A stretch of 64,000 nucleotides of DNA from positions 90,520,001-90,584,000 of the forward strand of contig CM097886.1 of NCBI GenBank assembly GCA_044892525.1, written 5' to 3'. Both the position numbers and the translations under genes were made by a program. The notes under the pieces are model-generated. The model saw only the letters and a program-made list of their open reading frames with translations, ran no database searches and was not told where the DNA came from. This DNA is from Schmidtea polychroa. Its lineage: Eukaryota. Positions 28,150 to 56,604 of this stretch are shown here, piece after piece. Positions within the stretch are counted from its first letter, which is position 1, and each line of letters starts with the position of its first letter.

Positions 28150-30339
28150 CTATTTATTTATTCGAGTGCTTGTGGATACACGATATTTTTTTCCGTTTGG
28201 TGCGTACACGAATAAATCAGAAGGTTTTTCGACGCCTGAGCTGGCCACATACAGTTGTCCACGTGAGAAGAACGGATTCTTCAAATCTAGTCTACACACT
28301 TGCAGCGATTGTCCTTGTGTTTTGTTGATGGTCATTGCAAAAACAATTTGCACCAGAAACTGTAAACTTTTGAATTCAAATTGTGTATCTGTTAGCATCA
28401 TTGGAACAAGTGGAAACAGTACATCTTCCCCCTTGAATTTTCTATTTAAAATTGTAGCTTCCATGACACTGTTCATCATCTTTTTCACCAAATGTCCTGT
28501 ACCGTAGAAAAGTCGTGGTGGATTGATATTTCGTAGAAGAATGATAGGCACGTCAATTTTCAATGTTAAAGTGTGCGGTGGTATACCTGGCAAATCGGTT
28601 AATTCAAGAATTCTGTTAGGTTATTGACAACTTCGTCTTAATTCATCACATTATCGATGGACTTATACGATGGACTCATAGCACGTGCATTGAGCATTGA
28701 TGATTTTTATAATTGCGCGCAATATTTGGAGAAAATCTTTCTAATCAATTCGTCTTTGGTTGATATCATCTTAAAAAATTTTGTTGGTAATGTAATACAT
28801 TGTGTAGATTCTTCAATTGCCATCTTCCTTTTTCACAATATCCAGCAATGATTTTACGAAACGTTCGGCGGATGCATCATTTTGTAGTTGAACATGCATA
28901 TTGGTTTTCAAAGTAAATTTTACATGTCATTATAGAACTGATGATTTGAGATAAGCATTAAGTTCATCAACCAGTGTTGAACGTTCTATAACAAGCAGAG
29001 TTTGTAAAAAATCACCAGACAATAAAATGATTGCTCCACTGAAGGGCTGTCCATTTTCACTCAAATCTTACAGCTTACGATTGAGCGCTTTTTGTGAGCC
29101 ATTATGTATTTATTTATTGCATTTTAGCGTCTTAGTGGTTTGCAAATTCAACGGCAATTTCATTGCTGAATGCACTGTTCGACCACCATCCAAAAGTGTT
29201 GCCGCAATTCCAGATGATGCAATTGCCAGTGCAATTTTATTCCGTGATCACGTGGTTGTTAAAATGATTCAAACGAGAAAAGTTTTACCGTACTTCCGTG
29301 CGCATCTATGAATTACAATCCGCCACTTTGATTTGTAATTGCTTGTATCTTATACAATGCGTTGTTCTGGAAATAATTTCGGAAGATTCTTTTCAACAAA
29401 TGTACCCAAATCGACGATATCGAAGTGTATTTCACGTTGCAAATCACGATAATAAGCGTCATTTGCCGATCAATTCGGTGCATACATTCCCAACCGTATT
29501 AATTCTTTGTTAATGATTGCCAAACATATATCCTCGATCGAAACCAACGCCTCTTTATACAAGTTTGGTGTGAATTGCATTTCCGGATTCCGATACTCGA
29601 AAACGACGTAGGATGTCTTTACTTATGTAATCTTTGTATTTTTCCCAAAGATCTTTCGGATTGTATTGTAAACCCGTTGTCAATATTATCGCAAATAGCG
29701 TGCGTATTTGCTATTGTTGATCAGTGTTGGATGCATCAGCGAGTGCTGTGTCCCTATGGGAAACGTTTTCAAGAATATTTCATTCTTGACAAACTTCTCG
29801 ATAAGTCACACATACTTCACCATTTACTGTTATCAGTTTATCAGCATTTCGGTCCACGTACGTTAACTAACAATAATCGCAAGTAAAAACATTCTTGATT
29901 GTTTGAATAAACTGTATACAGACGGCCTAAGGAGTCGGAAAAATATAAATTCGGATGTTCATCAACTGCTTTTCCCCGTTTATGACGTTAAAACCTTTTC
30001 GGTGATGCTGAAATTTTTTAACAACGTCCTAGATAAATTCAAAAAATTCTCCAAATTTATTTTATTGGAACCACTGATTTCTTTGCAAACCGGTGAAAGT
30101 TGATCAACGTTGTCGATTCAATATCAATACTAATCATAAAATTTTAATTTTTAATGGCACTTATTGGTGATATTTGAATACCTTTACTTATAAACGAGGG
30201 CCCTGGAGGTTGATATTTAAAAGGTTTGTATGCCAGAAACCTTCACGGGAGTGTACTCAACAACTTCCCAGAGTTTCGTGGTGATCGGATAAATGGTGTA
30301 GTAATGCATAAAGGACAAACAGGCAGCAGATAATATAGA
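28150..30339 (-). mobile_element. Decayed, internally deleted Helitron (PIF1 helicase part of RepHel)
   Basis: G.PPH.L.LK...PIILLRNINPPRL, FAMTINKTQGQSL, FSRGQLYVA, NIVYPQALE*; upstream fragments DA.G..GKTF, IALAIASSGIAATLLDGGRTVHS, RLYTV...QECFYLRLLLVNVRGP; candidate A|TC 5' end at 30339. Confidence 0.9.
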
Positions 30340-30942: not shown

Positions 30943-32022
30943 TGTTAGGTTCGATGGGTAAGTATTCGAACTAACACAAAAACGTTTAATCGGACTCCAA
31001 ATAACTTAAAATGCGCGTAGGTAAATAAATAAGAAATATGTTTTAAATATTTATTAGCAATAAAAAGTTAGTTACATGATAATTAATATAAAACACGCTG
31101 CTTTCTAAAAGTACAGAAAACGGTTATTTAAACCGCCCTAAAGAGTATTACTAAGAATCAAGGCTGGCCCTAAATGCGCCAACAGCCCGATATAGGTGAA
31201 CGGAAAAGAGATAGGGAAGTTTACCAAATGTTACGCGATGGAGTCAACCCAGAAATTGGTTAACCCTTTTTCAAAAAATATTAGCAACGAAACAACACAA
31301 AAATACGTGCTGACGTTACTGTTTCCCTTGTTTAAATTTTATTTAATCAAATAGATTTTTATATAGATATTTTTATTTATAATTATTTAGATAAGAATAA
31401 TAAATACTAACTAATATAATTTCCTGCTTATTTAAATTTCTCGCGGAAAATAGCTAAAACCACAGACTGGTTGTTGAATTAACTTCTAATAATATTCTTC
31501 CTTTGATTTAAATATCTCCAAAGAATATTATAATTTTGAATAAAGAATATTCCAAAATCAGAATTACAAAAATTAATTTTTCGATCGATTATTATTTAGG
31601 GTGAAAATTCCGTCTACTGTTAAATTCCTAGTTAGACTGCAAAATAAATGTCAACTGACGTGAATTGCTTTCAAATCAAATTGATTTCTTCTTTTCTAAT
31701 TTTAACTACTGCGGCTATGTTTCTTTCTGGTCTACTTACCTCAAATTCGTCCTTCAGCTCACATTTTCTACTGGTATTTATACCATTTTATTTATTTAAA
31801 TCTATTAATAGTAATTATTTAATTACTATTTTTATTATATATTTTTATACAAATACTATTTTTATTACAAATCTATTTTTAGTAATTATTTATTACTATT
31901 TATATTTTTAGTTCCAATTTTAGTAATTTTTTAAATACTATTTATATTATAATTCTAATTTTAGTAATTAATTATTATTTAATTTCAAAACATTTAATTC
32001 CGGTTCCTACTGAACCCCAACA
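30943..32022 (-). repeat. 3' LTR (1080 bp)
   Basis: Direct repeat of 43885-44963; by eye 4 substitutions + one 1-bp indel. Confidence 0.97.
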
Positions 32023-32414: not shown

Positions 32415-34481
32415 CTAGTATTTTCTCCTTTTCATGACCTTGGCACTTTCGTTACGGATCCTTTGTTCTACTATGTCTGGTCTGTAACTGATCACCAAAG
32501 TCTCCCGTGTACTTACCTCTTTGTACACAATTGAGGAGATGATGTACGAGCCCTCATTAGCCTCCAATACTCCGTAATCGGGGAAATTGGATACGGCTAC
32601 TTCATGGATTGGGCCTCCGTCGTATTCCTTGATACGCGGTTTCCATTTGCTGTCGGGTCTCTGCCACCAACTAGGATCTTCCCTGTCGAGATCTTTCCGT
32701 ATTTTGATTGAGTTGCCCCTTCCGACGAACTCGCCTTCCTTCACGATAATAGGCTCTCCTGCAATTGTGGGTTCTTTCTTTGTTGCCAATATCTTGGTCA
32801 ATGCAGGATCTGGTGGCTGATAGTGGGTTTCTAAGAGATCGTCATCCTCATCCTTGATGGATATCCTAGGCATTTTCTTTTTTGTACTCTTAGGAATCTC
32901 CTTTTTCCTTTTCGTAGAGGTAGGGACATTTTTCTCCTTGTCCTCTTTCTGGGTGGGTTTCTCCGTTGTTTTCTTTTTAAATTTTAAATCATGTAGCTTA
33001 AGTAGTGGTGCTACGGCTTGGGGTAATGCTCCTCCTTCTGCTCCTTGTTTGGGTTCACTCAACGGGGCTAATGCTTTCAAGATCTTGGTGACCCGTTCAA
33101 CTAACTTTTCTGCTGGCGGTGGTTTTTCTGTTTCCATTTTAGTCGAATTCACCACTCTACCGTCATTGGTAAGGTTGACTTGGAGGCAGTTATCGTCTGC
33201 ACTCTCACAAGTGGCATAGTCGTCTTCTTCAGCAATTGAAATGGCTGGCGGCGACAAGGAATCTTCTTCCACTATTTTCAGCAACTTCGACCTAGGGATA
33301 TCTTCTTTTACATAGCTCTCCATAGCTAGAGGTTTCTGCATGCTTGAGGTACCAGGTTCCATCTGCTTTATTTGTGAAGACACCACCTCCTTCCGGGTGT
33401 CTGGTGAAATGTCATCAACCCAGATATCTCGTAAATTGTCGAAAATCTCCGTTTGAAGGTCCGAGAAGTGATGTGCCTCTTTACCGGTGACTGCCTTTGC
33501 CAAATATGCCAAACGGTAATACCCGTTGCATTTCTTTAGGTCCATACTTTCGAGGCATTTAGCTGCGCCTAACTCACGGATTCCGAGTGCGCGCTGCATT
33601 GGGAATCTGATTACTTCTAATAGGTCCTTTACTAGCAACCCCACGATGATTTTCCCATCGCAGATTTTTCTAATTCTTTCGGCACAGTCTTCTCCGTCGA
33701 ACTGTCCGGTTATTTCTCTCTCGGTCATACCATGCGCATGCGATTGGTAGTGTTTGACCTGTGCTCTGGGGGTAACTCTAGTGTTGAGTATCAGATCGCC
33801 ATTGAAATGTGAGATTGAGATGGCCACAATTGCCGGTTTCTAGAATTGTCGTAGTGTAGCGTAGTGAGCTGCTACGAAAATGGTGAGGTTATCCTCTTGT
33901 CTAGGGTCCAAGCGCTGTCTAACGAAAGACTTAAACGTTTTAATGTCGTTATCATTGACATTATATGTCCAATTTGGGTCATTAACCCATCTCGTTTGTG
34001 TTTCTCTGTGAGGTTCCAGAATTTCCATTGCTATGATGGTATCTATTCCTTCACATAACAGTGAGATGTTCTTTTCCCTTCCATCCCCGTTTTCAATTTC
34101 CAGGGTTGTATGCTTTTGCAGCAAAATGGGGTTTGTGGCACCAGAAACATAAACCGTAAATGGTTTGTTAATGGCGTGTATCCACAGGTGGTTGGTCAGA
34201 CTATGTCTGCCAAACTCAGGCATGACCTCGGTAAGCCTAATACAGCCGTTATGCTTGCCCGGGATTCTTGAAATAATCATTTGACGCTTTGGGGCCTCGT
34301 CAAATTTGAAATTATTGGGTATGCCTGAGCAATGTCCGTAAAACCAGTGCCTTTGTCCTTTTCTGCTTTGCTCCATTACCTGCTTCTCCAGGTTTTTATA
34401 AATAAGTTTTTCCTTTAGTAAGGTCGTAGCACATATAATGCTATGTCTTCCTTGGTATTGGGATATTGGATGGCTCTGCAT
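32415..34481 (-). CDS. Accessory ORF (one frame, single in-frame TAG at 33842-33840): putative AlkB/2OG-fold-like domain + DEDD exonuclease-like domain + charged tail
   Basis: ORFs 33840-34499 and 32415-33827 are in the same frame. AISISHFNGDLILNTRVTP...VKHY.S.AHG.T...KI.DGKIIVG....DL.V...IR matches REX1/REX4/ISG20-type exonucleases but ExoI acids are missing (IFVAAHYA). AlkB-like call is weaker. ATG at 34481 follows a TTTCAG acceptor. Confidence 0.6.
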
Positions 34482-34679
34482 TCCTGAAATAAAAATCATT
34501 AACCATAATATCAGATATACTGATATGTCATATTAGGCTAAAAAGATATGCATGAGTCTTATTATAAAAGATCTACATATGCTGAATTTTAATGCTACCT
34601 GGAGCTCTACGTAAATATAGATTTTAAGATATATATAAATATTTATATATGATTTTTCCCTCGGGGGAGTCTGTAATTG

Positions 34680-35596
34680 TCATAATTGCGACATCAGTAC
34701 TCCATCGTAAGCCCTTATGGCTTGTCTAAAATATAGCTTGGTCCAAATACCCATAGCTATCAGTGTAGTTATTAGCGATAGTACGGCCGATACCGTAATC
34801 CATACCCCTATGGGTATTTTCAGAATATATCCTACATTAAAGTTTGTGATGGCATTACAATCACAACAGTTTGTCAGGTTTGGGGTCGTTGGACAAGATA
34901 TTTGTTTGATAGGTGGCAACTGTCTAAGATGTTGCCACATTGCGGGATGTATTACCATGTTTTCCCTGACTACTTTTGGTGGTATCTTCGTTATAACTGG
35001 CTGTTTAAGAGGTAATATCTCCTCGAATACCTCGAACCACCTATCGTCCTGCCGTTTCCTCGGACTATAGTATATAACTAGAACCGAGTAATCTACGGAC
35101 TGATTTAGATACATTTCTTGGGAGGGTTCTGGTCTAACCATAATGTTTCTCTCGTGGTTGGTCCGTCTAGAATACTGACTTTCATCTTCTCCTCCCTGCT
35201 AATTTCTTGACTAAACTTTACTTTATTCTTTTCGTAGGATATCGATATGCGATTTGTGAAATCCGCCGTCCTCAGGATCCAATTTGATACGTGATAGGTA
35301 TACCAACCACTCTGATATAACCTTGATGCTGCGATATGCAGTTTATAATCCGTCTCGGCTTTTAAATCATATAAATCCCACTCTTTTTCTTCTGAATTGA
35401 GTTGGCGGATCCGCAAGTATTTGTTGTAAAAATGTAAATTGAATTTTGTAGCATTATCGCACGTTGTGAGTATGCTAATTCCGTGATACGTTCTTATGAA
35501 ATGCAAATGTTCCACTTGCATCGCCATAGGCTGAAAATATGCCTTTTTATCCCTTTTTGCCATCGCCAAAGTCATCATACAGCTTATTATCAACAA
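34680..35596 (-). CDS. Accessory type I membrane protein with fibronectin-III-like segments (frameshifted in this copy)
   Basis: Hydrophobic N-terminus LIISCMMTLAMA, FN3-like WDLYDLKAETDYKLHIAA, second ..YL.Q.VDYSVLV.Y, Cys cluster SCPTTPNLTNCCDC, TM IPIGVWITVSAVLSLITTLIAMGIW, short tail; frame changes near 35200-35140. Confidence 0.55.
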
Positions 35597-36935
35597 ATCT
35601 CAATGGGTATCGGTGTTCTTGTGCTTCTTCGGTAATGTTTGGTTTCACCTGTTTCTCTGGTGCTTTTACTTTTGAATTTCCAGAGGTTCCTTTTGTTGGG
35701 ATTTCGCACTTTTTACACCGATTAGCATGTACCATTATTGGTTCTGCTTTTCTGTTGGCTACGAGTTGTAATATGAGATTTGTATCTGTGGTTCTCAATA
35801 CCTCATATGGCCCTTTGAAGTTCCGCATGAGTTTTGGTGATAAGCCTTTCTTGTTATAATGACTTTCTAACATCACCTGGTCTCCAACCAATATGCCATG
35901 ATCCTTGGCTTTTCGGTCGTGATAATCTTTTGATGCTTCCTGATTATATTTTATACTGAGCCCTGCTCTGGCCCATGCTACCTGCATTCTTTCCCTCATT
36001 TCCATTAGATAATCTTCTTGATCTAAATACTGTGTTGCTTTAGGGAAAAACAACAGGTCTACTGGCATTTTATTTTGCCTCAGATACATAAGATAAAATG
36101 GTGTTTCACCTGTTCCTTCGTGCACCGCATTTCTGTATGCAAATAAACAAGATGGAATGTGGATGTCCCAATCCGTTTGCCCTGAATTTATATATGATGC
36201 TAACATATTAGCTAATGTTCCATTAAATCGTTCTACTAGCCCATCCGTCGGTGGGTGATATGGGGAAGTGTTCAACTTTAGAACTCCGAAATAATCATTT
36301 ATTCCTTTGAGCAAATTACTCATGAAATCAGCTCCCCGATCCGTTAATAGCTTTGTAGGTACTCCATACCTAAAGACAATTTGTTCCACGAAAATTCTAG
36401 CTATCGTATCAGCTTTGTGATTAGGCATCGGGTAGGCTTCTGGCCACTTAGTCAGATAGTCGCAGAACACTAATATATACTTGTTTCCGCTATTAGATTC
36501 TTTGAAGGGCCCCAACACGTCCATTGCCGTCATTTCCATAGGTGTAGATGGTACTGGCATCGGCTTCATTGGTACGTGTGGTTTCTTTCCGGTATTTCTT
36601 CTGGTGATACAGATCTTACACGTCTGACACCAGGTTTTAACATCTTGTTTCATGCCGGGCCAAAAGTATTTTTGTTTTAACCTCGACAATGTTTTTCTGG
36701 ATGACAGGTGGCCTCCTAAGACCCCATCGTGATACTGCAACATGAGTGCTTCACGGTATTTCTTAGGAACCATTATAACAATATCTCTTACATCTGAATA
36801 TTTAACTAGTCCCTCTTCCAGTACAAATTTGTCTTTATTCTTTTCCCAATATTTCGTGAATTCTGTGGGCACGTATTTTGCTTCTAAGGCTTGACGAATA
36901 ACATTTATTTCTTCGTCAGATTTTTGTGCCTCCAT
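35547..36935 (-). CDS. Integrase (HHCC, DDE core, GPY/F)
   Basis: HDGVLGGH...CQTC, MDVLGP, LTDRGADF, GLVERFNGTL, KGPYEV; in frame with pol across one TGA. Confidence 0.95.
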   Translation of the reverse strand: MEAQKSDEEINVIRQALEAKYVPTEFTKYWEKNKDKFVLEEGLVKYSDVRDIVIMVPKKYREALMLQYHDGVLGGHLSSRKTLSRLKQKYFWPGMKQDVKTWCQTCKICITRRNTGKKPHVPMKPMPVPSTPMEMTAMDVLGPFKESNSGNKYILVFCDYLTKWPEAYPMPNHKADTIARIFVEQIVFRYGVPTKLLTDRGADFMSNLLKGINDYFGVLKLNTSPYHPPTDGLVERFNGTLANMLASYINSGQTDWDIHIPSCLFAYRNAVHEGTGETPFYLMYLRQNKMPVDLLFFPKATQYLDQEDYLMEMRERMQVAWARAGLSIKYNQEASKDYHDRKAKDHGILVGDQVMLESHYNKKGLSPKLMRNFKGPYEVLRTTDTNLILQLVANRKAEPIMVHANRCKKCEIPTKGTSGNSKVKAPEKQVKPNITEEAQEHRYPLRFVDNKLYDDFGDGKKG

Positions 36936-36947
36936 TAAATCAGCTAG

Positions 36948-39308
36948 TCAGTTGGCTTCTCGAGTCAGTGTGAAGATAGTCCCTTCTAAACGTCCTTCCT
37001 TCACATCTTCTGCTTCTTCTTCCTGGTCCATTCTTGATAAAGCATCTGCATTACCATTGTGATCTCCTTTTCTGTAATGGATTTCTATGTCATATGGCTG
37101 TAAAATTAGTGCCCATCTGACTAGTTTTGATGTATCCATTGTGTGTTTTGTCAGCCACTGTAATGGTCTATGATCGGTGTACACTATGATTTTTCGACCC
37201 CATAGATAAATCCTAAACTGGGTTATAGCATATACAATTGCTAAAGCCTCTAGTTCTATCACTGCGTAGTTTCTCTCGTGTGGTTTTAACCATCTGCTAG
37301 CGTATGCAATTGCATACTCATCTCCTAGGTCATCTCTCTGACCTAGCACAGCACCTATGCCCCGAGTGCTGGCATCTGTCATAATCAAAAATTGTCTCTC
37401 AAAGTCTGGAAATCGCAATATAGGTGGCTTGACGAGCTTTTCCTTGAGCATATCAAATGCTTCCTGCTGTTCTGTTCCCCACACAAATTTGAGGTTTTTG
37501 CCTTCTAACTGCGTGAGTGGAAAGGCTATAACCGAGAAGTTTCTAATGAACTTTCTATAGTATCCGACTAGGCCTAAAAACCCTTTGATATGTTTAACGG
37601 TTTTAGGCTCGGGGAAATTCTTTACCTTTTCGACATTAGCCGGATCTGGTTTAACCCCATCTCGAGAGATGATATGACCAACATATACTACTTCTGGTTC
37701 GGCCCATTTACATTTGGTTGGTTTCACTTTCATGTTTGCGTTGATCAACCTCTTGAATACATCTTCTAAATGTTCCAAGTGTTTTTCCAAATTTGGCGAG
37801 AATACTATGACGTCGTCAATGTATACCATCGCGTGATGCACATCCATGAGCATCAAATTCATTGCTCTTTGAAATGTGGCTGGAGCTCCTGTGAGTCCAA
37901 ATGGCATTACGTTATATTCGTAATGACCCATACTCGTAGAAAACGCTGTTATTGGTATAGTCTCATCTTTTAGCTTAATTTGATAAAATCCCTTTTGGGG
38001 GTCCATTACTGAGAAGAACCTAGCGTTTCTCATGCGTCCATAGATATAATCTAACAATGGCAATGGATGGCTACTTTTGCATGTTGCTTCGTTAACCATG
38101 TGATAGTCGTTACATAATCGTACTGATCCATCCTTCTTGGCTACCACTATCATTGGCGATTGATATGGTGATTTACTATGCCTGATTATGCCATGTTTTA
38201 ACATCAATTTCACCTGTTTATCTACTGATTCCTCCAGACTGAATGGGATACGGTATGGTTTCAACTTTATAGTTTTTGTATTGGTGAGAACAATCTCATG
38301 TTCTAACAGGTTTGTTTTTCCCAGATCGTATTCATGTTTCGTGAATACCTGGTCGTATTTCCTTAATAGCATATTTACTTGGATGTTTTCCTTTCTGGTT
38401 AGTACTTTGCTGTTTGCTGTAGGTGCATCGTAGTACTCAATGTCTGGATCCCTTTCTTCTGCCTTTACGGTGAGTATCGACCCTTCTCCCGTGGCTTGTG
38501 GCTCGTTTTGTTTCCAGATTCTGCCCACTCTGGTATCTGGATATAAGTAAAGTGGTTTAATGTCCAGATTGGCTACTCTGATTGGTATTCTGCCATTGAC
38601 TATTAAACCTACGCTATGCGTAACTGGTAAATTGTATTTCTCCGAAAATCTTTCGTCCGGTTCGAATACAACTTCACCTTCCCAATTATTGCTTGTAGTT
38701 ACAAAGCATACCGTTTCTGCTCTGGGTGGTATGATAGTTGTATGATCTATATAAGCTGTATCATCGTTGTAAATTTTTCTCTTTTTACCTCGTGCTCGGA
38801 TTAACAATCCAGATGCACAATCGAATACTACCCCTCGTAGTCTTTTTAGGATGTCCATACCCAATAGTGATTCGGCTGGGAGACTTCTCATCACTATGAT
38901 GTCGTGGTGGAGCTCTTGGTCACATAGCTTAATCTGGCATGATAATGATCCTATTACATTTAATGAGGATCCGTTTGCTCCTGTTAATTTTACCCCTGCC
39001 GGTTTTAGCGACTGCAGTTCATGATGGTTTAACAATTTAGCTTCAATTATGGTACCATCTGCTCCTGAGTCTATCACCGCATTAACTGTATGTCGGTTCA
39101 CTCTTATTTTTATCATTGGCTTTTTATCCAAGTTCACTGGGTTATTGACCATCAAGATAGTATCGTGCGAGATACCGATTGTATTGGCTCTCGTTTGTTC
39201 TGCTTCCAGTAATTCAGGATCACTCAGTTGAGGATTATACTCTTTAAATTTAGCTTTAATTGACTCTAACGCTTCCTTTGGATAGTGCACTTTAGGTAAT
39301 TCTGGCAA
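36948..39308 (-). CDS. pol: Pol: aspartic protease, reverse transcriptase, RNase H
   Basis: VIDSGAD; YQSPMIVV.KKDGSVRLCNDY, MPFGL, YIDDVIVFS; TDASTRGIGAVL, ELEALAIV, YTDHRPL, NADALSR. First ATG at 39152. Confidence 0.97.
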   Translation of the reverse strand: MPELPKVHYPKEALESIKAKFKEYNPQLSDPELLEAEQTRANTIGISHDTILMVNNPVNLDKKPMIKIRVNRHTVNAVIDSGADGTIIEAKLLNHHELQSLKPAGVKLTGANGSSLNVIGSLSCQIKLCDQELHHDIIVMRSLPAESLLGMDILKRLRGVVFDCASGLLIRARGKKRKIYNDDTAYIDHTTIIPPRAETVCFVTTSNNWEGEVVFEPDERFSEKYNLPVTHSVGLIVNGRIPIRVANLDIKPLYLYPDTRVGRIWKQNEPQATGEGSILTVKAEERDPDIEYYDAPTANSKVLTRKENIQVNMLLRKYDQVFTKHEYDLGKTNLLEHEIVLTNTKTIKLKPYRIPFSLEESVDKQVKLMLKHGIIRHSKSPYQSPMIVVAKKDGSVRLCNDYHMVNEATCKSSHPLPLLDYIYGRMRNARFFSVMDPQKGFYQIKLKDETIPITAFSTSMGHYEYNVMPFGLTGAPATFQRAMNLMLMDVHHAMVYIDDVIVFSPNLEKHLEHLEDVFKRLINANMKVKPTKCKWAEPEVVYVGHIISRDGVKPDPANVEKVKNFPEPKTVKHIKGFLGLVGYYRKFIRNFSVIAFPLTQLEGKNLKFVWGTEQQEAFDMLKEKLVKPPILRFPDFERQFLIMTDASTRGIGAVLGQRDDLGDEYAIAYASRWLKPHERNYAVIELEALAIVYAITQFRIYLWGRKIIVYTDHRPLQWLTKHTMDTSKLVRWALILQPYDIEIHYRKGDHNGNADALSRMDQEEEAEDVKEGRLEGTIFTLTREAN

Positions 39309-39351
39309 TGTTGAACATTATTAAAAAAAACAGATTATTAAATATGGTATC

Positions 39352-40835
39352 TTAGCCGATTTTCCATTGGTGTCGTCCTGTTCTGAGTGTTGTTTCCCTT
39401 GCATGTTCCCGCCCCTCGTTTGGTGCGGATGGTAAACTCCTCAAAGTTGGCAATTGTACATATCTTGGACTTCTCTTGAATCTGGGTGACTTTATGTCGA
39501 ATTTTTGGTCGGAACTGTCATATTCTCCTTCTGAGGACTGTTTTCTCACGTAGATTTCCTTTGATTGGTCATATGGAGGGAGATATTCCTTAAATCTCGA
39601 TTTTCTTTGTTGCTGAATCGGTTTTTTGTTGTAGTTCTGTTTTCGTGATTGATTTGATCTTGAAGATGTTTCACGAGAGCCTCCATTACCTCCTCCCTTT
39701 GAATTGTTATCGTCCCGATAACTCGAATACTCCTCCATTTCTGTTCCAATTACTTTATGTTTGACCAAATATTTCTGTCTAATTTCTTTAATTTTTTTTC
39801 TGTGATGTTTGAATAATGCAAACTCTGCACACATAGGACATAATCCTAATAGCAGTTTCCATGACCATCCCCCAATTTTGAATATGCTATATGTTGACAT
39901 CAGTTGTGTAATTATCAGCTTTAAAATTACAAATATTGCGTAGATTCCTGAACATCCGGCGACGAAAATACCAAAATTGGTAAATCGTCCCCATATTTTC
40001 ATCATTACGTTCTTTGCTGCTTCTTTATAGTGTTCCGGTCCAAATAATAGATTGTAATCTGGTCGTATTAAGCTATCATGATAAATTGTTCTTATAATTT
40101 CCGTGATACCTCTGTCTCTGATTTGTGGGAATAGCAATGTCCTTCTTGCTTCCTCGATATCGTCGGGAGTGTAAATCCCTCCTTTTACTAATTCGTCTAA
40201 TGACTTGAATTCCAGATTATCCTTTAATTTAGTTACTTCCAAGGTCTCTACCCGTTGTGTAGATGGTTTTCTTTCCGGCAAAGATATCCACATGTCATTT
40301 ATTTTATATAACGGTGATATTGCCGGGTTGCATATGGCTGGTTGAGGTTTAGCGTTTTCCTCAAGTAACTTTCTGGTTACTGGCATCACAAATCTCAATT
40401 TTCCTTGGTAAGACACTGGCAGTTCTAGAGTGCATTGATTAAATCTGGCTAATTGTACTTCCACTGGTTTACACTCATAGCTATATATAGCTTCTCCCAT
40501 GATTCTGCCAAACATTCCCTCTTCCAATAACATTGGAGTAACCAGCTCTGGGTTAACGATAGATATTGCTAATCTATTTCGGACTATTTCACGATTTAGC
40601 TTGCAATCGTTTGCAGATCATGATATAAATAATCTACTTTATTATTTATATAATTCGTGATTTTGATATCCTTTACATGTAGGACCTTGGAATTTCGAAT
40701 ATATTCTCTTGACAGGAAGATTCCTTTGTATTTCGTCTCGTATACTCTTTTCCCACATTTAGTCTTTTTATCTTTTCGGACAAATCGAATTGCTTCTGTC
40801 TTGTCTTCCGATATCAACACTAGAGGTGTGTTTTG
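39352..40835 (-). CDS. env: env-like chuvirus-type (class III) glycoprotein, N-terminally truncated, one frameshift near 40605
   Basis: TPLVLISED...CGKRVYETKY.GIFL...YINNK.DYLY, then DCKLNREI...GEAIY...C.PVEV......C..ELPV.Y....F..P.TR.L...C...Y.I...W...GIYT..D....R..L.FP, and W..F..FG...AG..GIY....LI.......GWSW.LL; pattern typical of Jingchuvirales-like G proteins. Confidence 0.85.
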
Positions 40836-43785
40836 GAATCGTTTCCTTTTCCCAAAATTTGTTTACGGTCATCCATACCTCCAGGTAATAATCTACCATT
40901 TCGACTATTTGATCGATTTCTCGTTCTATAAGCCTTTTATCATCCCCTACCCGGGCTAGGGCATTTTGAATTAACAATGATAGTGATGTTACCACTTTCC
41001 CTCTTGTTAATCCTTGCTGTACGAAGGCTTCTATGGCATCCTGAATATCTCTAGTTGATACATCTTTGGATACTCTTTCCATTGTCTTCTTGACCTCTTT
41101 CGTTATTTTCTTTACTTCGATCCCCTTGATTTTTGGAATTCTCCATTCGGGCCTGATAATCCCGATCATTTGTTGTATACGTTGCCACAATAACGACCTC
41201 TCTGACGTTGTCTCATCTTCCACCTGGTCGTCCATTTCTTGAGCTATCCCTGTTAATGTTTTTAACTGAATTTTCCGAATCGTTTCCGGATTTAACTGCT
41301 CCTTGGGTGGAGGTTTCATTTGATCCTTTCTAGGACGTCCTCGTCCGTCTTTTTTCACTTTCTCCGGGGGTTTTTCAGCCTCCGGATTTGTTATAGCTTG
41401 TGACGTAGTAGCTTCTACGTTTGTTTCTCCTGGATTTAATCTGACGTACTCTGAGAAGTAATCTTCCTCGTCAATATCCACCATTTGACAGGGATTAATT
41501 TCCTCTAGTCTTATTTCCTCGATCTCTTCCGCAATTTCGTTTGCTATATCTGGCAGTCTCATTAATGACCACTGGGACTCTGGTGGAGTTACTGGGATGA
41601 TCATTACCGTGGTTGTTGCCAGCGGTAGACAACCCACATCCACTAGATATTCATCATCATCCACTTGCCTACCATGGACCATTGTCAGGAATATACCTGT
41701 AGTTTGATCGGTGGCAATCACATCTCTCCTTAATATTTTGACTTTGATATAACAATTATAAATCATTGTTAATTGTTCTTTTCCCATCATTCGCACGTCT
41801 AGATTAATGTTGCCTTGTCTATCAGGCTGACTTCGGATAGCTTTCCCATTTTTCCTCATCAGCGCTTCAATTTGCGTCTGGAATGGGCTTGTTTCCTTTA
41901 CCACTGGTAGTATAAGTGGAATTATTGCTTCCAACAAATCTACTGGTATTCGTAATACTAACATCCAGTCAAGTATTTTCTTTATAGTTTCTCCATCTCG
42001 TGGAGATTTCTGCAATTCCAACCCTAGTCGCTGGGTTAATTGTTGAGTTTCTTCCAATCTCTCTATTTCCATCTGAGTAATCAAGAATACGCTATCTTGA
42101 TCCATTACTGCCACTGGCTTCTGTGCTCTCTTTGCTGTGAGCTTCGTCACTCTACCTGGGAGTATCCCGTTTTGTAGAAGTGTTTGATTTGCTTCTAGTT
42201 TTGTTCCACATAAGTATAAGTCATATCCTTGATGCTTAATACTTGTCAATGTTTCCGTTAATTTATCGGCTCGACTTCTTACATTTATATCGAGATTATA
42301 CTCTTTATCCTGTGGTAGCTTTATATTGAGCTGAGCATCTTGGAGATCCCACTCATGTTCCATGAGTTTTCCTAATTTCCTTAGGATTTTGTACGTGTCA
42401 TTATGATACTTTGGATCATCTTCGACCTGCGATATCAGTTTTACTACTGTATCGATTTCGTGAATTTTAATTTCTGCTTCTCCCAATTTTTCCAATTGTC
42501 TGGCCAGCTTCTGCTGGTACTCATATCTGGAATCCACCAGTTTTAAACATTTTGTTAGGGTATCTGACCCTTCTATTACCTTTGCTTTCCCTGGTAAGGT
42601 TCTATCGAACTCGCTTAGTATGGTGGCCATACTAGGTTCATCATCGGAACTCTCCTCTGATTCCGTTTCCTGAAGGTCCTCTCTAACGGAGTCCTTTTTT
42701 CTGAGAAATTCATCTCTTCCAACTTCTACCATGAAGATGGTGCCTTCTTGGTCGGTCAATCTAGCCAACCTATTCTTTTCCTCCTGGATTTCCATTTCCA
42801 GTTGTTGCAGATAAGTTAACCCTTGATCCTGGTTAACCATAAAAGTCGTCTTAGGCTTGTTCACATTACATCCACTCTGATTCTGAGGACATGACCTCAT
42901 CATATGTCCGAATTTCCCACATCCGTGACATTTTATCTTTCCTGATGAATTTACATCATCTCTTTTAATCGTACTAAAATTATTGCTGTTCTGAGGACTT
43001 CTAGTCTTGTAGACCGCAGCAACATGTCCCTTACGTTTACATTTTTCGCATTGCAAATTCTGTACTCTACAGTTTTCCGCACCGTGGTTATTCCGTCCAC
43101 ATTTGGTACATTGTATACTTTTGCGATTGCCCATAATTTTCCTACTGGTACAATCTTTCGCTATATGCCCTTTTCTATGGCAATTGAAACACTCTACCGG
43201 TGTTCTTTCACTGTTTACTAGGAACATGGTTGACTTTTCCAAGCTGCTTTCAATTACGACAGCTTTCCGTGTTAATTCGTCAAAATCATCACTAGTATAT
43301 AATATTAGGGCGTTCCTCATTGTAGGAGTAAGTCCTGCCCATAACTGATCCTTAACTAACAATTCTGTTGGCTTTGCCCATGTGGTTTTTGGACCAAATG
43401 CTCTTTCGGCAATTAATGATAGCTGGTGTGCAAATTCCTCCACATGTTCATTGGCATTCGGTTTTCGATGGTAAAATTGTTGTCTAAATATTCTTCCCGC
43501 ATCTCCGGGCAATATTCGAGCAGTCATTTGTTCTCTCATTTCGGCCCATGTTTTCGGTGCTTGAGCAACTGGTAATGCCATTATGTCATTATATTTTTCT
43601 CTTGCCAGCCCCTTCAGATATATGGGTAACCTTTGTATCATGATATTATCTGGATAGGCATATGCTTTGGCCATCTGATAATATTCAGACATAAACTCTG
43701 GGAATTCTCCCGGATCACCACTGAATGCCTTTACGGGCAGAGCGGGATATCTGGCAAATGCATTTACATTAGCTTCCTCTGCCAT
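40768..43785 (-). CDS. gag: Gag polyprotein, 1005 aa, with long C-terminal extension
   Basis: FSGDP.EF.EF...Y, capsid-like region, Zn knuckles CFNCHRKGHIAKDC, CTKCGRNNHGAENC, CEKCKRKGHVAAVY (degenerate), CHGCGKFGHMMRSC; later Ubl-like segment and GRGRPRK. Confidence 0.93.
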   Translation of the reverse strand: MAEEANVNAFARYPALPVKAFSGDPGEFPEFMSEYYQMAKAYAYPDNIMIQRLPIYLKGLAREKYNDIMALPVAQAPKTWAEMREQMTARILPGDAGRIFRQQFYHRKPNANEHVEEFAHQLSLIAERAFGPKTTWAKPTELLVKDQLWAGLTPTMRNALILYTSDDFDELTRKAVVIESSLEKSTMFLVNSERTPVECFNCHRKGHIAKDCTSRKIMGNRKSIQCTKCGRNNHGAENCRVQNLQCEKCKRKGHVAAVYKTRSPQNSNNFSTIKRDDVNSSGKIKCHGCGKFGHMMRSCPQNQSGCNVNKPKTTFMVNQDQGLTYLQQLEMEIQEEKNRLARLTDQEGTIFMVEVGRDEFLRKKDSVREDLQETESEESSDDEPSMATILSEFDRTLPGKAKVIEGSDTLTKCLKLVDSRYEYQQKLARQLEKLGEAEIKIHEIDTVVKLISQVEDDPKYHNDTYKILRKLGKLMEHEWDLQDAQLNIKLPQDKEYNLDINVRSRADKLTETLTSIKHQGYDLYLCGTKLEANQTLLQNGILPGRVTKLTAKRAQKPVAVMDQDSVFLITQMEIERLEETQQLTQRLGLELQKSPRDGETIKKILDWMLVLRIPVDLLEAIIPLILPVVKETSPFQTQIEALMRKNGKAIRSQPDRQGNINLDVRMMGKEQLTMIYNCYIKVKILRRDVIATDQTTGIFLTMVHGRQVDDDEYLVDVGCLPLATTTVMIIPVTPPESQWSLMRLPDIANEIAEEIEEIRLEEINPCQMVDIDEEDYFSEYVRLNPGETNVEATTSQAITNPEAEKPPEKVKKDGRGRPRKDQMKPPPKEQLNPETIRKIQLKTLTGIAQEMDDQVEDETTSERSLLWQRIQQMIGIIRPEWRIPKIKGIEVKKITKEVKKTMERVSKDVSTRDIQDAIEAFVQQGLTRGKVVTSLSLLIQNALARVGDDKRLIEREIDQIVEMVDYYLEVWMTVNKFWEKETIPKHTSSVDIGRQDRSNSICPKR

Positions 43786-43863: not shown

Positions 43864-43881
43864 ATCACGTCGGGCTCACCA
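43864..43881 (-). promoter_or_regulatory. Primer-binding site complementary to tRNA-Trp 3' end
   Basis: TGGTGAGCCCGACGTGAT, 3 nt inside the 5' LTR; its complement ATCACGTCGGGCTCACCA matches the animal tRNA-Trp 3' end (ATCACGTCGGGGTCACCA) at 17/18. Confidence 0.9.
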
Positions 43882-43884
43882 AAA

Positions 43885-44963
43885 TGTTAGGTTCGATGGG
43901 TAAGTATTCGAACTAACACAAAAACGTTTAATCGGACTCCAAATAACTTAAAATGCGCGTAGGTAAATAAATAAGAAATATGTTTTAAATATTTATTAGC
44001 AATAAAAAGTTAGTTACATGATAATTAATATAAAACACGCTGCTTTCTAAAAGTACAGAAAACGGTTATTCAAACTGCCCTAAAGAGTATTACTAAGAAT
44101 CAAGGCTGGCCCTAAATGCGCCAACAGCCCGATATAGGTGAACGGAAAAGAGATAGGGAAGTTTACCAAATGTTACGCGATGGAGTCAACCCAGAAATTG
44201 GTTAACCCTTTTTCAAAAAATATTAGCAACGAAACAACACAAAAATACGTGCTGACGTTACTGTTTCCCTTGTTTAAATTTTATTTAATCAAATAGATTT
44301 TTATATAGATATTTTTATTTATAATTATTTAGATAAGAATAATAAATACTAACTAATATAATTTCCTGCTTATTTAAATTTCTCGCGGAAAATAGCTAAA
44401 ACCACAGACTGGTTGTTGAATTAACTTCTAATAATATTCTTCCTTTGATTTAAATATCTCCAAAGAATATTATAATTTTGAATAAAGAATATTCCAAAAT
44501 CAGAATTACAAAAATTAATTTTTCGATCGATTATTATTTAGGATGAAAATTCCGTCTACTGTTAAATTCCTAGTTAGACTGCAAAATAAATGTCAACTGA
44601 CGTGAATTGCTTTCAAATCAAATTGATTTCTTCTTTTCTAATTTTAACTACTGCGGCTATGTTTCTTTCTGGTCTACTTACCTCAAATTCGTCCTTCAGC
44701 TCACATTTTCTACTGGTATTTATACCATTTTATTTATTTAAATCTATTAATAGTAATTATTTAATTACTATTTTTATTATATATTTTTATACAAATACTA
44801 TTTTTATTACAAATCTATTTTTAGTAATTATTTATTACTATTTATATTTTAGTTCCAATTTTAGTAATTTTTTAAATACTATTTATATTATAATTCTAAT
44901 TTTAGTAATTAATTATTATTTAATTTCAAAACCTTTAATTCCGGTTCCTACTGAACCCCAACA
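43885..44963 (-). repeat. 5' LTR (1079 bp)
   Basis: Direct repeat of 30943-32022, adjacent to PBS. Confidence 0.97.
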
Positions 44964-50223: not shown

Positions 50224-52273
50224 TTACAGAATATTATGGTTATCTATTGTCGACTGTTCACAAAACTTTAACCACTGGAAATAGAGAAATAGAGAAAGTT
50301 CTTCTTTATTTGAGATGGAATATTCTGGAGAATAATAATTAACTCTGAATGGATTATATTTCTCAATGGAGCTGATTGGCTTACAATATTGTGTGCAGCT
50401 AGTAATATTCTGTGTGTTTGTGATGGATAAATTTGATTGGTTAATAAAGGTTTTGACTATAAATTCATCATTTTGCTGCTGTTGGTGGTGATGGTGATGG
50501 TGATGGTGATTATTGGCATTGGAATCGGATAATTCTGAGAACGATAATCGTGGAGATTTGTCAATGAAATGATTGGTTGATAATGATTTGGCAGCGTTGG
50601 AAACGGATTTATTATTATTGTTTTGCTTGTTTAGATCCGATTCATTGATGAAATTGAATTTGAATAGAGATAAATCTAAATGCCTAGAAACGCAACTTGG
50701 GGAACTAGATTTCCTATGAATTCGATCTGGCACATTTGGCGTTGGATTTGGTTGGAATTTTGTGCTTTCTGTGACTGTTGAGTGATTTTCCTTTACAAAT
50801 CCAATCGATTCATTCTGGGTTGCTTGAATTTCATTGTTCAACTGTTCCATTTGGTCTTTATCGATCGAATCATAACGTTCGATTTCATGGAATCCGCTAT
50901 CGGTGCTCGATGTTCTCGTGTTCTCTTTTGATTCGTCGGGAATCGATGAGATTTCTGAGATGGGAATTTCGTTTCCAGTATTTCTGGTAGAATTCTCTAT
51001 GGTGTTATTATCGAGTTTCAGTTTCCCGTCTAATGCTGAGGCGGCAAGGGAACTCGTCTGGGCGTTGTCAGTAGCATCTAATGTTGAGGCGGCAAGGGAA
51101 CTAATTTGGGCGTTGTCAGTAGGATCTAATGCTGAGGCGGCATGGGAACTAATCTGGGTGTTGTCAGTAAGATCTAATGCCGAGACGGCAAGGGAACTCA
51201 TCTGGGCGTTGTCAGTGGCATCTAATACTGAGGAGGCAAGGAAACTCATATGGGCGTTGTCAGTAAGATCTAATGCCGAGGCGGCAAGGGAACTCGTCTG
51301 GGCGTTGTCAGTAGCATCTAATGCTGAGGCGGCAAGGGAACTAATCTGGGCGTTGTCAGTAGCATCTAATGCTGAGGCGGCAAGGGAACTAATCTGGGCG
51401 TTGTCAGTAGCATCTAATACTGATGTGGCATGGGAACTAATCTGGGCGTTGTCAGTAGCATCTAATGCTGAGGCGGCGTGGGAACTAATTTGGGCGTTGT
51501 CAGTAGGATCTAATGCTGAGGCGGCATGGGAACTAATCTGGGTGTTGTCAGTAAGATCTAATGCCGAGACGGCAAGGGAACTCATCTGGGCGTTGTCAGT
51601 GGCATCTAATACTGAGGAGGCAAGGAAACTCATCTGGGCGTTGTCAGTAAGATCTAATGCCGAGGTGGCAAGGGAACTAATCTGAGCGTTGTCAGTAGCA
51701 TCTAATGCTGTAGAATGAAAAAATGAACCCAACGAAGAATCTTCATCAAAGGCATTTTGCTTTACAGAATAGGGCGTCGAGTCAAGGACATTTAATATTG
51801 TCAAAGATTGAGTGGTTAAAATTTCTTCTTTTAAGGTATTTACATCTATATTTAATAGGTTGTCAATAATTTGGGTGTCTTGGGAGATAATCTGTCGATT
51901 ATTGGAAAGGGAGCAATGTGACAGCTCGGTTATTATTGTGCTGTTTTTAGGGGGAACATTTTTGTGAGGTTTTATACTGTTAGTTACTGCTAGGGTCGGT
52001 GGAATTTGGGTTAGTTTCGGAGGTAAATTATTTTTCACGGAATCGATTTTATGTCGTTTGGATTTTTTGGATTTTTTACGTTTTTTATATGATTTTTTGC
52101 TAATTTCATTTAGAACTTCTTTTTCCGATTTTTCCCCATTGATAAACTCTGTCAATAGATCTATTGGAAGGTTGGATAATATTTCAGGGGATAATGTGGA
52201 GAGATCGATTGGCACTATGTTCGAGCCTTTCGATGTTATTTGACAGGTTTGATTGGCATCATATTGTGATTCC
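50224..52273 (-). CDS. Large last exon of a low-complexity protein with 16-aa tandem repeats and His/Gln runs
   Basis: Frame open from a TTATTAG acceptor near 52273 to stop at 50224; Lys-rich NLS-like stretch, 14 repeats of LDATDNAQISSLAASA, poly-H/Q. No domain recognised; upstream exons not found. Confidence 0.65.
51029..51710 (-). repeat. 48-bp coding minisatellite, ~14 units with higher-order duplication
   Basis: Unit GCATCTAATGCTGAGGCGGCAAGGGAACTAATCTGGGCGTTGTCAGTA; variant units 2-5 recur as units 10-13. Confidence 0.95.
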
Positions 52274-52630: not shown

Positions 52631-52699
52631 TCGAATTTGTTAAATTACTGATTACATCATCAGTTATATTTTTTATAAAAATTTCAAAGACACTTGCTT

Positions 52700-52857
52700 G
52701 ATATAATATTATATCATATAATATTATATATCATATTATATCATGTTAAGCTATATCATATTATGTTATATCATATTATGTCATGTAGTATTATGTCATC
52801 TTATGTTGTGTCATTTTGTGTTATATCATGTTATGTTATATAATTTTATGTTATATT
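52700..52857 (+). repeat. Degenerate (TATCATGTTATGTTA)n satellite, left part
   Basis: Same orientation and unit as 56352-56604. Confidence 0.85.
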
Positions 52858-55800
52858 AGTAGGTAATTAGTAGCCACCTGCGGCACGACCATCTGTTACT
52901 GGGGGGGGATGTTGTTAAAGTAAATTTTTTTTGCTTTTTGGTTACGTAACTGCTGCAGAGGGCAACACTTATTTTTTCTGTGATTTTTAATAGAAAACAA
53001 GGCCATATAGAAAAAGCCTGGATTTTCTGGTTATAATGAAGGGGTCACCTTGGTCCTTGGATTTTCAATACAAAATCTGACTATCACTAAAAAAGCATAG
53101 ATTTTTCTAAGTAAATTAAGGTGGGTCTCCTTGATCCTGAGATTTTCAATACAAAATCCGATTCTCGTTAAAAAAGCATGGATAAGCAAGTATAATTTGG
53201 GTGGGTCTCTTTGGTCCTGGGATTTTCAATACAAATATCAGTCTACACTAAAAAAGCATGGTAAATTTTAAAATTAAAGTAAATTAAGGTCTAAATTTTT
53301 AAATTAAAGTAATCAATGGGCTCAGACAAGTAAAGTAAATTATGGTTAAATTTTTTAATTAAGTAATCAATGGTCTAAAATTTAAAATTAAAGTTAAGTA
53401 AGTAAATTAAAGTAATAATTTTAAATCAAAAGTGAATAACCACAAAATTTTTGATAAATGAAATTTTTAATGGAAATTTTTATGAAATAATAATAATAGT
53501 AATAATAATAATAATAGTAATAACAATAGTAATAATAATAATAATAAAACAATAAAATAATAATTTAAGCCTTTTGCAGCAAATAATGTATTTAATGAAA
53601 AGATTTTCTACTATAAGATAGTCCTTGTCAATCTCCTAAAATTTAGCAATGTTCTTCCCAAAAATACCTTTCAATCTTTCTTTTATTTCCTTTCTCTTAG
53701 TTCTCATTGGTTGTAAATATAATGAATTTTTTTATTAAAAACTTTTAAAATTTTACTGAAAATTAAAAATAAAATAAAATAAAATAAATACCATTTAAAA
53801 TTCCAAAATGGCACAAACTAAAAATTTAAAAATTTTTTTATACAGCTTCTATAATTAGCTTCTAGAAGCCTAATAAAATATTTCAAAATATTCTAAATAA
53901 AGCCTCCAATAACTACTTATATATGCTATTTAAATATTTCAATAAATTTGTCAATTTTGATTTTCAAATCCTATTTCTTAAAATTTTCTATATTATTCTA
54001 ATTATTACTTTTTAATTTATTATATATTTTTTTTAATTTCTTTATATATTGTCAGTTATTCTCAAGGTCAATGACAACAGATCAAATTCATGATTTCATT
54101 GATTTCTTTAGTGTTGATCTTTGGCTGTCTGTTTATGATGAGAATTGCTTCTTTGAATTTGACATTTTTCTTTTGGATATTTCCATTAGCTATGATTTCT
54201 ATTGAAATATTTTTTCTTTCCTCTGTTGGCTGACACTGCCGGAGATGTCTGCCCAATGAGGATGTTCCACCAGGATCTAGATGTTCTTTAACTCTTTGGT
54301 GCAAGGTCTTGAGTGTACTTCCAATGTAGATTTCATTGCATACATTGCACGTGATGCAATAGACGATGTTTTTTCTAAAGCACATATCTTTCGGTGTCTG
54401 GCAGTTTTTCATTGTGCAATTGTTTTCTCTATTTATGTTGCCTGCCAGAGCTCTTCTCAATGTCCAAGATTTATGTGCTATCCGAATTGGAAGACCGGTA
54501 CGTTTAAGTTCTTTCAGGATCTTGAAGTCGAGTATGTCACTGATGAATGGGATGTTCAGATAGAATTATTTCTTATTCTTTTGTGTTAATTCCCTAGATC
54601 TTCTTGGGGTAGAATTCATTCTTTCAATGTCCTCGCCTTGGTATCCGTTTCGGTGTAGGATTTTATTGAAATTTGATTGTTCTTTAAAGTTTTCGTTTTT
54701 TTCCGTGCATCGATTGGCTATTCTTCGTTTCTCGTTTCTTATGACATGTAATTTCTGTAAGTATGGAAGCGCTGATCTTTGGTGCATAAATATTTCTTTG
54801 CGAGCTGGTTTTCTGTAGAACCCGAATGTTGGAGTATTTGCTTCTATTTTATTTCTCAAATCCAATTAATTGAGGGATCCATCTTCTTCCGGATATTCGA
54901 TTTCGAACTTAATATCTCGGTGAGCCGCATTGAATGTATGAAATATTTCCTCCTCTTCTTTTCTGCTTTTGGTCATGATGAATATATCATCTACATATCT
55001 TGCATAGAAACCGATGGGTTGTATGGTCCTCAGTGTCTGTCGTTCGAGGTTATCAATAAAGATGATTGCTAGCAGTCCTGATATGCAAGAACCCATATAT
55101 AGACCTTTAACTTGTTTATAGATATTTTGCTCAAAGGTAAAATAGGTGTTCTCGGGGATAAGAGTAAGTAGTTTTGTGATATTCTCGATATTCATTTCCT
55201 TTATTAACAAGTTGCTTTCTCTTAATTTCTTTTATAAACATTGAATAGCTTCTTTGAATAAGAAAGGAAAAAAATATTTCAATAGAAATCATAGCTAATG
55301 GAAATATCCAAAAGAAAAATGTCAAATTCAAAGAAGCAATTCTCATCATAAACAGACAGCCAAAGATCAACACTAAAGAAATCAATGAAATCATGAATTT
55401 GATCTGTTGTCATTGACCTTGAGAATAACTGACAATATATAAAGAAATTAAAAAAAATATATAATAAATTAAAAAGTAATAATTAGAATAATATAGAAAA
55501 TTTTAAGAAATAGGATTTGAAAATCAAAATTGACAAATTTATTGAAATATTTAAATAGCATATATAAGTAGTTATTGGAGGCTTTATTTAGAATATTTTG
55601 AAATATTTTATTAGGCTTCTAGAAGCTAATTATAGAAGCTGTATAAAAAAATTTTTAAATTTTTAGTTTGTGCCATTTTGGAATTTTAAATGGTATTTAT
55701 TTTATTTTATTTTATTTTTAATTTTCAGTAAAATTTTAAAAGTTTTTAATAAAAAAATTCATTATATTTACAACCAATGAGAATTAAGAGAAAGGAAATA

Positions 55801-56351
55801 AAAGAAAGACTGAAAGGTATTTTTGGGAAGAACATTGCTAAATTTTAGGAGATTGACAAGGACTATCTTATAGTCGAATTTTTTTTCATTAAATACATTA
55901 TTTGCAGCAAAAGGCCTAAATTATCAATAATAATGATAATAATATTTCAACCAAATACTTAAACACATAAAAATTAACTAAACATATAAAAAGAACAAGA
56001 CAAAAGTAAAGATATAAAATTTATTCAATAATAATCTTCATCATCTGATAACATGACATCGTCTGTCTATAAGTTCATCAATTTCTAATTGCACATTTTC
56101 TTCATTCTTTTTTTGGTCATTATTTTTAATCCTTAATTTACCATGCTTTTTTAGTGAAGACCCCCTTTTTGTATTGTAATTCGAAGGTTCCATGGAGACC
56201 CTCTCACTATAGTCAGAAAAATCCTTGCTTGTTTCTATATGATCTTTTTTTTCTATTGAAAATCGCAGAAAAAATAAGTATAGCCCACTGCAGCAGTTAC
56301 ATAACCAAAAAGCAAAAAAATCCGCCTGCAGTTGGCTACTAACTACCTACT
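52858..56351. mobile_element. Non-autonomous long-TIR element with AG termini (possibly Polinton-derived)
   Basis: TIRs AGTAGGTA.TTAGTAGCCA... (52858-~53120 vs ~56125-56351, diverged); ~60-bp subterminal tandem repeats at 53040-53260; flanks TATATT / TATATC. Confidence 0.7.
53561..55924 (-). mobile_element. Penelope-like element (RT + GIY-YIG, frameshifted) with ~660-bp inverted arms
   Basis: RT: TYFTFEQNIYKQVKGLYMGSCIS, YARYVDDIFI; FYRKP; GIY-YIG: IVYCITCNVCNEIYIGST...RVKEH; arms 53561-54220 and 55262-55924 nearly identical; degenerate hammerhead TGACAAG-GACTAT/CTT/ATAGTC-GAA at ~55853-55880. Confidence 0.9.
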
Positions 56352-56604
56352 TATATCATTTTGTGTTATATCATGTTATGTCATCTTATGTTATGTTCTT
56401 GCATTATTCTGTTTGTTCATGTTATGTTATATTATGTTATGTTATATCATGTTATGTTATATCATGTTATGTTATATCATGTTATGTTATATCATGTTAT
56501 GTTATATCATGTTATGTTATATCATGTTATGTTATATCATGTTATGTTATATCATGTTATGTTATATCATGTTATGTTATATCATGTTATGTTATATCAT
56601 GTTA
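56352..56604 (+). repeat. (TATCATGTTATGTTA)n 15-bp satellite
   Basis: About 11-12 perfect units from ~56430. Confidence 0.97.

Follow-up and report, generated by a model that had tools for sequence, protein, structure and literature searches.

The nematode NERVs of Sacco et al. 2022 are said to carry a continuous gag-env-pro-pol ORF together with extra ORFs, and we know of no post-integrase FN3 membrane protein in them. In planarians, the giant gypsy-like Burro/GYPSM1 elements encode a single polyprotein that includes Gag and domains like ubiquitin and BCL2, and their env, of a mononegavirus-like type, sits in frame between gag and pol (Arkhipova & Yushenova 2019, PMC6431247); the available text on Burro describes no membrane protein after the integrase, though a Burro-like copy analyzed here has one. 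Platyhelminthes errantiviruses with a GAG-ENV-POL order and an HSV/gB-type env, among them 6 planarian elements, were described by Chary & Hayashi (PMC13524379). Chromodomains alone are discussed C-terminal to the integrase in the available text of that paper; its main text does not mention fibronectin, exonuclease, accessory, or polyprotein, and its supplements contain no fibronectin or FN3. Bdelloid rotifer LTR elements bear extra ORF3s, including TM and DEDDy exonuclease types (Rodriguez et al. 2017, PMC5408684), and the available portion of PMC11410931 holds nothing on a post-integrase membrane protein. Across the literature text at hand, figures aside, neither a post-integrase FN3 membrane protein nor a PDZ-type tail is described for such elements.

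We analyzed a stretch of 64,000 nucleotides of the Schmidtea polychroa genome (hereafter the window) and identified on its minus strand a 14-kb Ty3/Gypsy (Metaviridae) LTR element, here termed family A, with the order gag, env, and then PR-RT-RH-IN. Paired LTRs, a TSD, a PBS, and the PR-RT-RH-IN order are all present and place the element in Ty3/Gypsy. Its main features are as follows.

43885..44963, minus strand: 5' LTR, with TG..CA ends, a 4-bp target-site duplication, and 4 mismatches in 1080 aligned bases against the 3' LTR
43864..43881, minus strand: primer-binding site, which we take to be tRNA-Trp-like
40768..43785, minus strand: Gag, carrying zinc knuckles (zf-CCHC and Retrotrans_gag matches) and, by eye, a pair of ubiquitin-like repeats plus a Bcl-2-like domain
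39352..40862, minus strand: class III (Monjiviricetes/gB-type) env (PF24664, E 2e-50)
35547..39317, minus strand: Pol, PR-RT-RH-IN, with an in-frame stop at 36948-36950 in the window copy
30943..32022, minus strand: 3' LTR, pairing with the 5' LTR

The class III env lies in frame between gag and pol and forms a single open frame in sister copies; the window env is devoid of the signal and N-terminal part, both of which are present in sister copies. The ubiquitin-like and Bcl-2-like domains of family A had no Pfam match and were recognized by their motifs, by eye alone, and in a related family, B, the corresponding Pfam matches (ubiquitin, E 2e-4; Bcl-2, E 0.004) were both below the curated cut-offs. 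The two ubiquitin-like repeats and the Bcl-2-like domain adjoin the env signal peptide upstream (window 40843-42219; L058:4502-7555), and this signal peptide could act as a tail anchor. The polyprotein order and env position of family A are those of Burro/GYPSM1 as given in the available text (PMC6431247), but family A is 14 kb long and without ankyrin repeats after the integrase. Gene order and env class are also shared with the Platyhelminthes errantiviruses, as far as their description is available; by eye, the family-B env matches Smed_errantivirus_2, and the family-A env resembles Smed_errantivirus_4 (PMC13524379). Elsewhere in the window we observed a long inverted repeat of 656 nt and 99% identity with short tandem arrays at its flanks (52659-56654), possibly a foldback or TIR element, a tandem array with a 48-nt unit (50885-51808), an exon of an actin-related protein (PF00022; 24494-24787), and, by eye, a PIF1/Helitron-like helicase fragment (28150-28620).

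An earlier note on this DNA had claimed a second membrane protein directly after the integrase, assembled from two overlapping frames with a signal-like N-terminus, an FN3-type motif, a second similar unit, a Cys cluster, a TM helix, and a short tail. All of these parts are present in the minus-strand frames 35599-35105 and 35198-34680.

35598..35612, minus strand: integrase-end RYPLR(S) motif, followed in frame by the signal peptide in sisters
35558..35596, minus strand: predicted internal signal peptide, h/c region; in sisters its hydropathy peaks at 1.74
35261..35512, minus strand: FN3-like domain 1, from the host FN3 profile score and alignment with family-B domain 2, which folds as FN3; FN3-type motif at 35374-35333
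35013..35260, minus strand: FN3/Ig-like domain 2, split in the window copy by a private frameshifting deletion near 35126
34818..35012, minus strand: Pro-rich stalk, with the Cys cluster (34857-34895) and one N-glycan sequon
34743..34817, minus strand: predicted transmembrane helix (hydropathy 2.0; a long helix in the family-B model)
34680..34742, minus strand: cytoplasmic tail with C-terminal S-Q-L (class I PDZ-binding type), then TGA-CAA-TTA

We compared this segment with 19 sister copies, the best of at least 40 other genomic matches in a DNA search. The frame break, which had been placed near 35200, lies near 35126 by this comparison and is private to the window copy, being absent in 19/19 sisters. 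In 18 of the 19, the integrase frame continues into the signal peptide (the RYPLR motif was not found in L014), and signal to TM is one open frame in 15, of which 5 are near-identical duplicates. A deletion near 35597 is likewise private, with 18/19 sisters differing there alike and L018 having its own nearby deletion, and it is because of this second lesion that the segment looks like a separate ORF. Further, 4 matches lay in stop-free frames of 3366-3369 aa (protein search, among the 150 scored of 277 candidates), and one sister copy had gag-env-pol open across 2542 aa. Since sisters run from integrase to TM in one frame, the segment is the C-terminal part of a single Gag-Env-Pol polyprotein of ~3,370 aa, and its split into two frames reflects damage specific to the window copy. 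The second membrane protein is thus real and conserved, as had been proposed, only not as an ORF of its own. Two unrelated membrane proteins do flank pol, the PF24664 class III fusogen upstream and the FN3-TM segment downstream. The window copy is broken in env, pol, the membrane protein, and ORF5 (the ORF downstream of the segment), so the FN3-TM protein is not expected from it. Long frames were also kept open by internal deletion in 5 copies (L054, L055, L007, L019, and L031), with env joined directly to the FN3-TM segment in L054.

By hydropathy and sequon scan, the segment has the layout of a type I membrane glycoprotein, with a signal, sequons, a single TM, and a short tail, and there is no Met ahead of the hydrophobic core of the signal. 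At the hydropathy cut of 1.6, the family-C post-integrase signal, the env signal, and the Burro TM scored below, and two stretches in the Gag region passed; with the env signal under the cut and Gag stretches over it, the membrane topology is a tentative prediction.

Weaker matches and an env profile identified 4 further families in the same genome, A', B, C, and D. The A' ectodomain is ~41% identical to that of A, against 84-86% for the integrase, and the integrases of B, C, and D are 64-68% identical to that of A. Each of the 4 has the RYPLRS motif and a hydrophobic signal-like stretch with no Met upstream, then a beta-rich ectodomain that leads into a TM and a tail. The ectodomain comprises two units in A and A' and three in B, C, and D, and hhalign places the A ectodomain on the two C-terminal units of B/C/D (E 9.7e-5, probability 58%, 132 columns); pairwise BLAST of the A and B ectodomains was not significant (E 0.16). 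The Cys cluster is confined to A and A', which are 45% identical and also have 3 sequons at matching positions. The comparison shows a post-integrase membrane protein conserved in five families, and the expectation that the segment would be kept as an ORF elsewhere holds both for the 15/19 open sisters and for the homologs in A', B, C, and D.

Within A, pairwise dN/dS of the segment was 0.14 and 0.22, as compared with 0.05 for the integrase; between families it was 0.29 (C vs D) and 0.22 (B vs C, with dS close to saturation). Computed from changes common to at least 2 copies among 13 indel-free A copies, with small counts, dN/dS was 0.05 in domain 1, 0.23 in domain 2, 0.14 in the stalk, and 0.0 in the TM plus tail. 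These substitution patterns show purifying selection on the membrane protein, and its divergence parallels that of the element families. A recently transduced, functionless fragment of a host gene could explain why family-A domain 1 weakly resembles host FN3 domains; with dN/dS well below 1, the segment present in five divergent families, and no donor found among the host FN3 loci described below, we regard this explanation as highly implausible.

The FN3 fold is best seen in family B. In a model built from a 7-row alignment, two 7-strand sandwiches occupy approximately residues 98-272, followed by the TM helix, and the first domain has no resolved fold; pLDDT was 66-87 in the sandwich blocks, with one block at 55. 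Foldseek against the PDB returned 210 matches at E <=0.001 with tandem FN3 arrays on top (CD45, E 1.6e-6), and VIA matched the FN3 of CD45 (Z 9.0, rmsd 1.8 over 73 residues) and fibronectin (Z 9.3), level with the top row, a bacterial Ig-like domain (Z 9.4). Herpesvirus gC models appeared in the viral fold list (E 8e-5) as a generic fold match. Modeled from its single sequence, the family-A ectodomain came out all-beta, with a pLDDT of 48.5 and a best Z of 6.7 in the fold search. A profile built from 28 host FN3 domains gave family-A domain 1 a score of 10.3 bits, higher than 50/50 shuffles; none of A', B, C, D, and Burro beat shuffles, and Pfam fn3 (PF00041) had no match above the cut-off in A, A', B, C, or D. 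ESM Atlas leads were FN3-type membrane proteins (A, 0.92/0.91, recognition 2292; B, 0.87). The modeling provides good support for an FN3 fold in the family-B ectodomain, predicted as tandem sandwiches. The family-A model itself is poor, so the call for family A derives from homology to B, by which its ectodomain is predicted to be FN3-like. In this form, the FN3-like ectodomain of the earlier note is borne out.

Its proposal of a captured host receptor or adhesion fragment fared less well. Neither a donor nor outside homologs were found, and the divergence of the segment is in step with the families. The family-A protein had no match among 627 candidates of near length, among 1.84 billion representatives, or among PDB sequences, and alignment A2 against proteins of 708-2020 aa, a range that full polyproteins exceed, gave 0/3957; the searched libraries also returned no copies of the element itself, which makes these empty results a poor guide to distribution. 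Among 143 host FN3 matches, the 30 best included no donor, with a best E of 0.085 over 855 segments. Genome-wide protein searches were dominated by element copies. Recent capture of a recognizable host receptor fragment is therefore unsupported, and old capture of a host FN3 gene is the likely ultimate source.

Two-glycoprotein viruses are well known, with attachment and fusion proteins in paramyxoviruses and gC/gD beside gB in herpesviruses. We consider the chances even that the segment is a predicted type I glycoprotein with FN3-type domains serving, next to the class III fusogen, as the second envelope protein. By analogy, it would resemble these viruses in having a separate surface glycoprotein beside the fusogen and a C-terminal PDZ-type motif, but there is no sequence homology, and here both glycoproteins would come from one retroelement polyprotein. 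This polyprotein would thread the ER membrane twice, with signal peptidase cutting behind each of the two signals, that of env and the post-integrase one, to give Gag-Ubl-Bcl2, Env-Pol, and FN3-TM products. Because both glycoproteins would be cut from one doubly threaded chain, they would be made together and in equal amounts, with Pol held between the two anchors on the cytosolic face. The FN3 ectodomain would then accompany Env to the membrane used for budding and act in attachment or as a partner of Env.

When the two family-A ectodomains, of Env and of the FN3 protein, were co-folded, the score was 0.44 (best control, 0.00), with at least 65% of contacts agreeing between runs and a partner pLDDT of at least 68; the mark applied is reached by 51/78 solved and 2/108 mismatched microbial pairs and by 39/65 solved eukaryotic pairs without a like complex and 2/126 unrelated ones, and at scores <=0.60 there are only 5 solved pairs vs all 4 passing mismatches. 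The model thus weakly supports a contact between the FN3 ectodomain and Env. Such a contact, like the receptor-like FN3 fold, would also be compatible with a decoy receptor or superinfection exclusion, in which the protein binds incoming Env or blocks its receptor in element-expressing cells. We consider this role very unlikely, as a blocker equimolar with Env and sharing its membrane would be apt to inhibit the fusogen of the element itself, and the 30 best host FN3 matches included no host receptor donor.

A free C-terminal S/T-x-V/I/L is a class I PDZ-binding motif, and the rabies G tail offers a viral PDZ-binding C-terminus. The C-termini of the segment, SQL, TTL, TRL, TWV, TFV, and TLV, have the form S/T-x-V/L in 6/6 families, with T-L-V in the Burro-like giant, against a background of 2.5% by composition or up to 3.9% in arbitrary frames (178/4605 or 35/935), and the six do not count as six independent draws because the families fall into three related groups. 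The conserved tail therefore conforms in sequence to a class I PDZ-binding-type motif and is putatively one. In family B (L034), a PPxY-type motif, presumably late-domain-like, stands directly before the terminal ETRL.

The Burro-like element has an integrase 52-53% identical to that of family A. After the integrase and ankyrin repeats, it encodes a signal and an ectodomain rich in Cys and Thr, followed by a weak TM and a tail; homology of this ectodomain to those of families A-D was not detected (hhalign, 0.2%). Besides this membrane protein, the Burro-like giant has a further, separate ORF with a signal peptide, a Cys-rich region, and a TM (both within L064:5892-7334; L065:3466-4488), as well as TRAF-like and BIR-RING ORFs.

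Under the second-glycoprotein reading, the PDZ-type tail would bring the FN3-TM protein to polarized membranes or junctions, as sites of particle budding or of passage from cell to cell. A tail motif kept in 6 families while ectodomains diverge or get replaced would also suit a cell-surface accessory protein outside particles, whose tail and FN3 ectodomain remodel junctions, adhesion, or signaling of the producing cell, and the elements do carry other host-modulating domains (Bcl-2-like, ubiquitin-like, and exonuclease; compare the available text of PMC6431247). This alternative appears rather unlikely given that being made in the same polyprotein as Env ties the protein to equal amounts and a common route, and that the co-fold model leans slightly toward contact with Env.

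Downstream of the tail, families A and A' have an open spacer leading into ORF5.

34482..34679, minus strand: candidate readthrough spacer of 66 codons, in frame with ORF5, with one stop in the window copy
32415..34481, minus strand: ORF5, with an N-terminal domain, an ISG20/REXO4-type DEDDh exonuclease fold, and a low-complexity tail; in-frame stop at 33840-33842 in the window copy

In both families TGA-CAA-TTA, which we take to be a readthrough-type stop context, precedes an open spacer of 65-66 codons with two hydrophobic stretches (window 34482-34682; L036:2683-2880; L028:2733-2933). The spacer is open and in frame in 21 of the 26 copies examined, compared with 0.3% of shuffles, although these copies are related and the independent evidence is A vs A' together with a 3-nt length difference between A subfamilies. 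We found no conserved RNA structure 3' of the TGA in 3 sequences. On this pattern, programmed UGA readthrough into ORF5 is a candidate in A and A', with splicing as an alternative because an acceptor-like sequence precedes the ORF5 ATG. Contigs of a sequencing run, guessed to be RNA, cover the membrane-protein region, and one contig of depth 3 lacks 230 nt, bounded by GT..AG, within the FN3-TM frame (L036:2039-2270); these contigs count neither for nor against expression. Among the contig matches listed from this presumed RNA run, there was no joint or loose end at the signal-peptide or ORF5 acceptor, and nothing supported a spliced mRNA that would give the membrane protein its own start codon.

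The exonuclease fold of ORF5 spans approximately 33408-33887, with 27% identity to the family-D exonuclease (E 3e-24), and the family-C ORF5 domain matches ISG20L2 and ISG20. Catalytic motifs are visible in C and D (L031:5768-7225; L051:4775-6247) and mostly lost in A and A', whose ORF5 is, judged by these residues, likely a pseudo-nuclease; no exonuclease ORF was seen in the stretches of family B that were read. Bdelloid rotifer elements, in the available description, likewise have extra TM and DEDD-type exonuclease ORFs, but their ORF3s are alternative types with no second membrane protein beside env, and DEDDy there stands against the ISG20-like DEDDh of ORF5 (PMC5408684).

The in-frame fusion of integrase to the segment, and the TGA-CAA-TTA context with its open 65-66-codon spacer in A and A', would also fit a membrane anchor or assembly aid, in which the signal stub would hold integrase and Pol at the membrane, UGA readthrough in A/A' would do likewise for ORF5, and the ectodomain would have a structural role or chaperone the folding of Env. 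Double stops follow the tail in C and D, however, no long ORF was seen downstream in the stretches of B that were read, and two to three selected FN3 domains with sequons exceed the needs of an anchor, which makes this role improbable. The second-glycoprotein reading can be extended, tentatively and at less than even chances, to a two-glycoprotein entry system, in which a class III fusogen and an FN3 attachment or trigger protein would both be cut by signal peptidase from one membrane-threaded polyprotein, the PDZ tail would direct junctional budding or cell-to-cell spread, and leaky termination at UGA would, in one lineage, append a protein of exonuclease fold to the glycoprotein.

The element class is known, from Burro and the planarian GAG-ENV-POL errantiviruses, and a conserved post-integrase membrane protein has not, to our knowledge, been described for it. 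Env-bearing LTR elements are generally treated as one-surface-protein systems, and a second conserved glycoprotein equimolar with Env would make the element surface resemble that of complex viruses. Our findings suggest that published POL annotations of such elements may include an overlooked lumenal protein. The membrane protein is a candidate determinant of cell tropism for very abundant planarian mobile elements, including Burro, and bears on the movement of retroelements between somatic and stem cells in a tractable animal.
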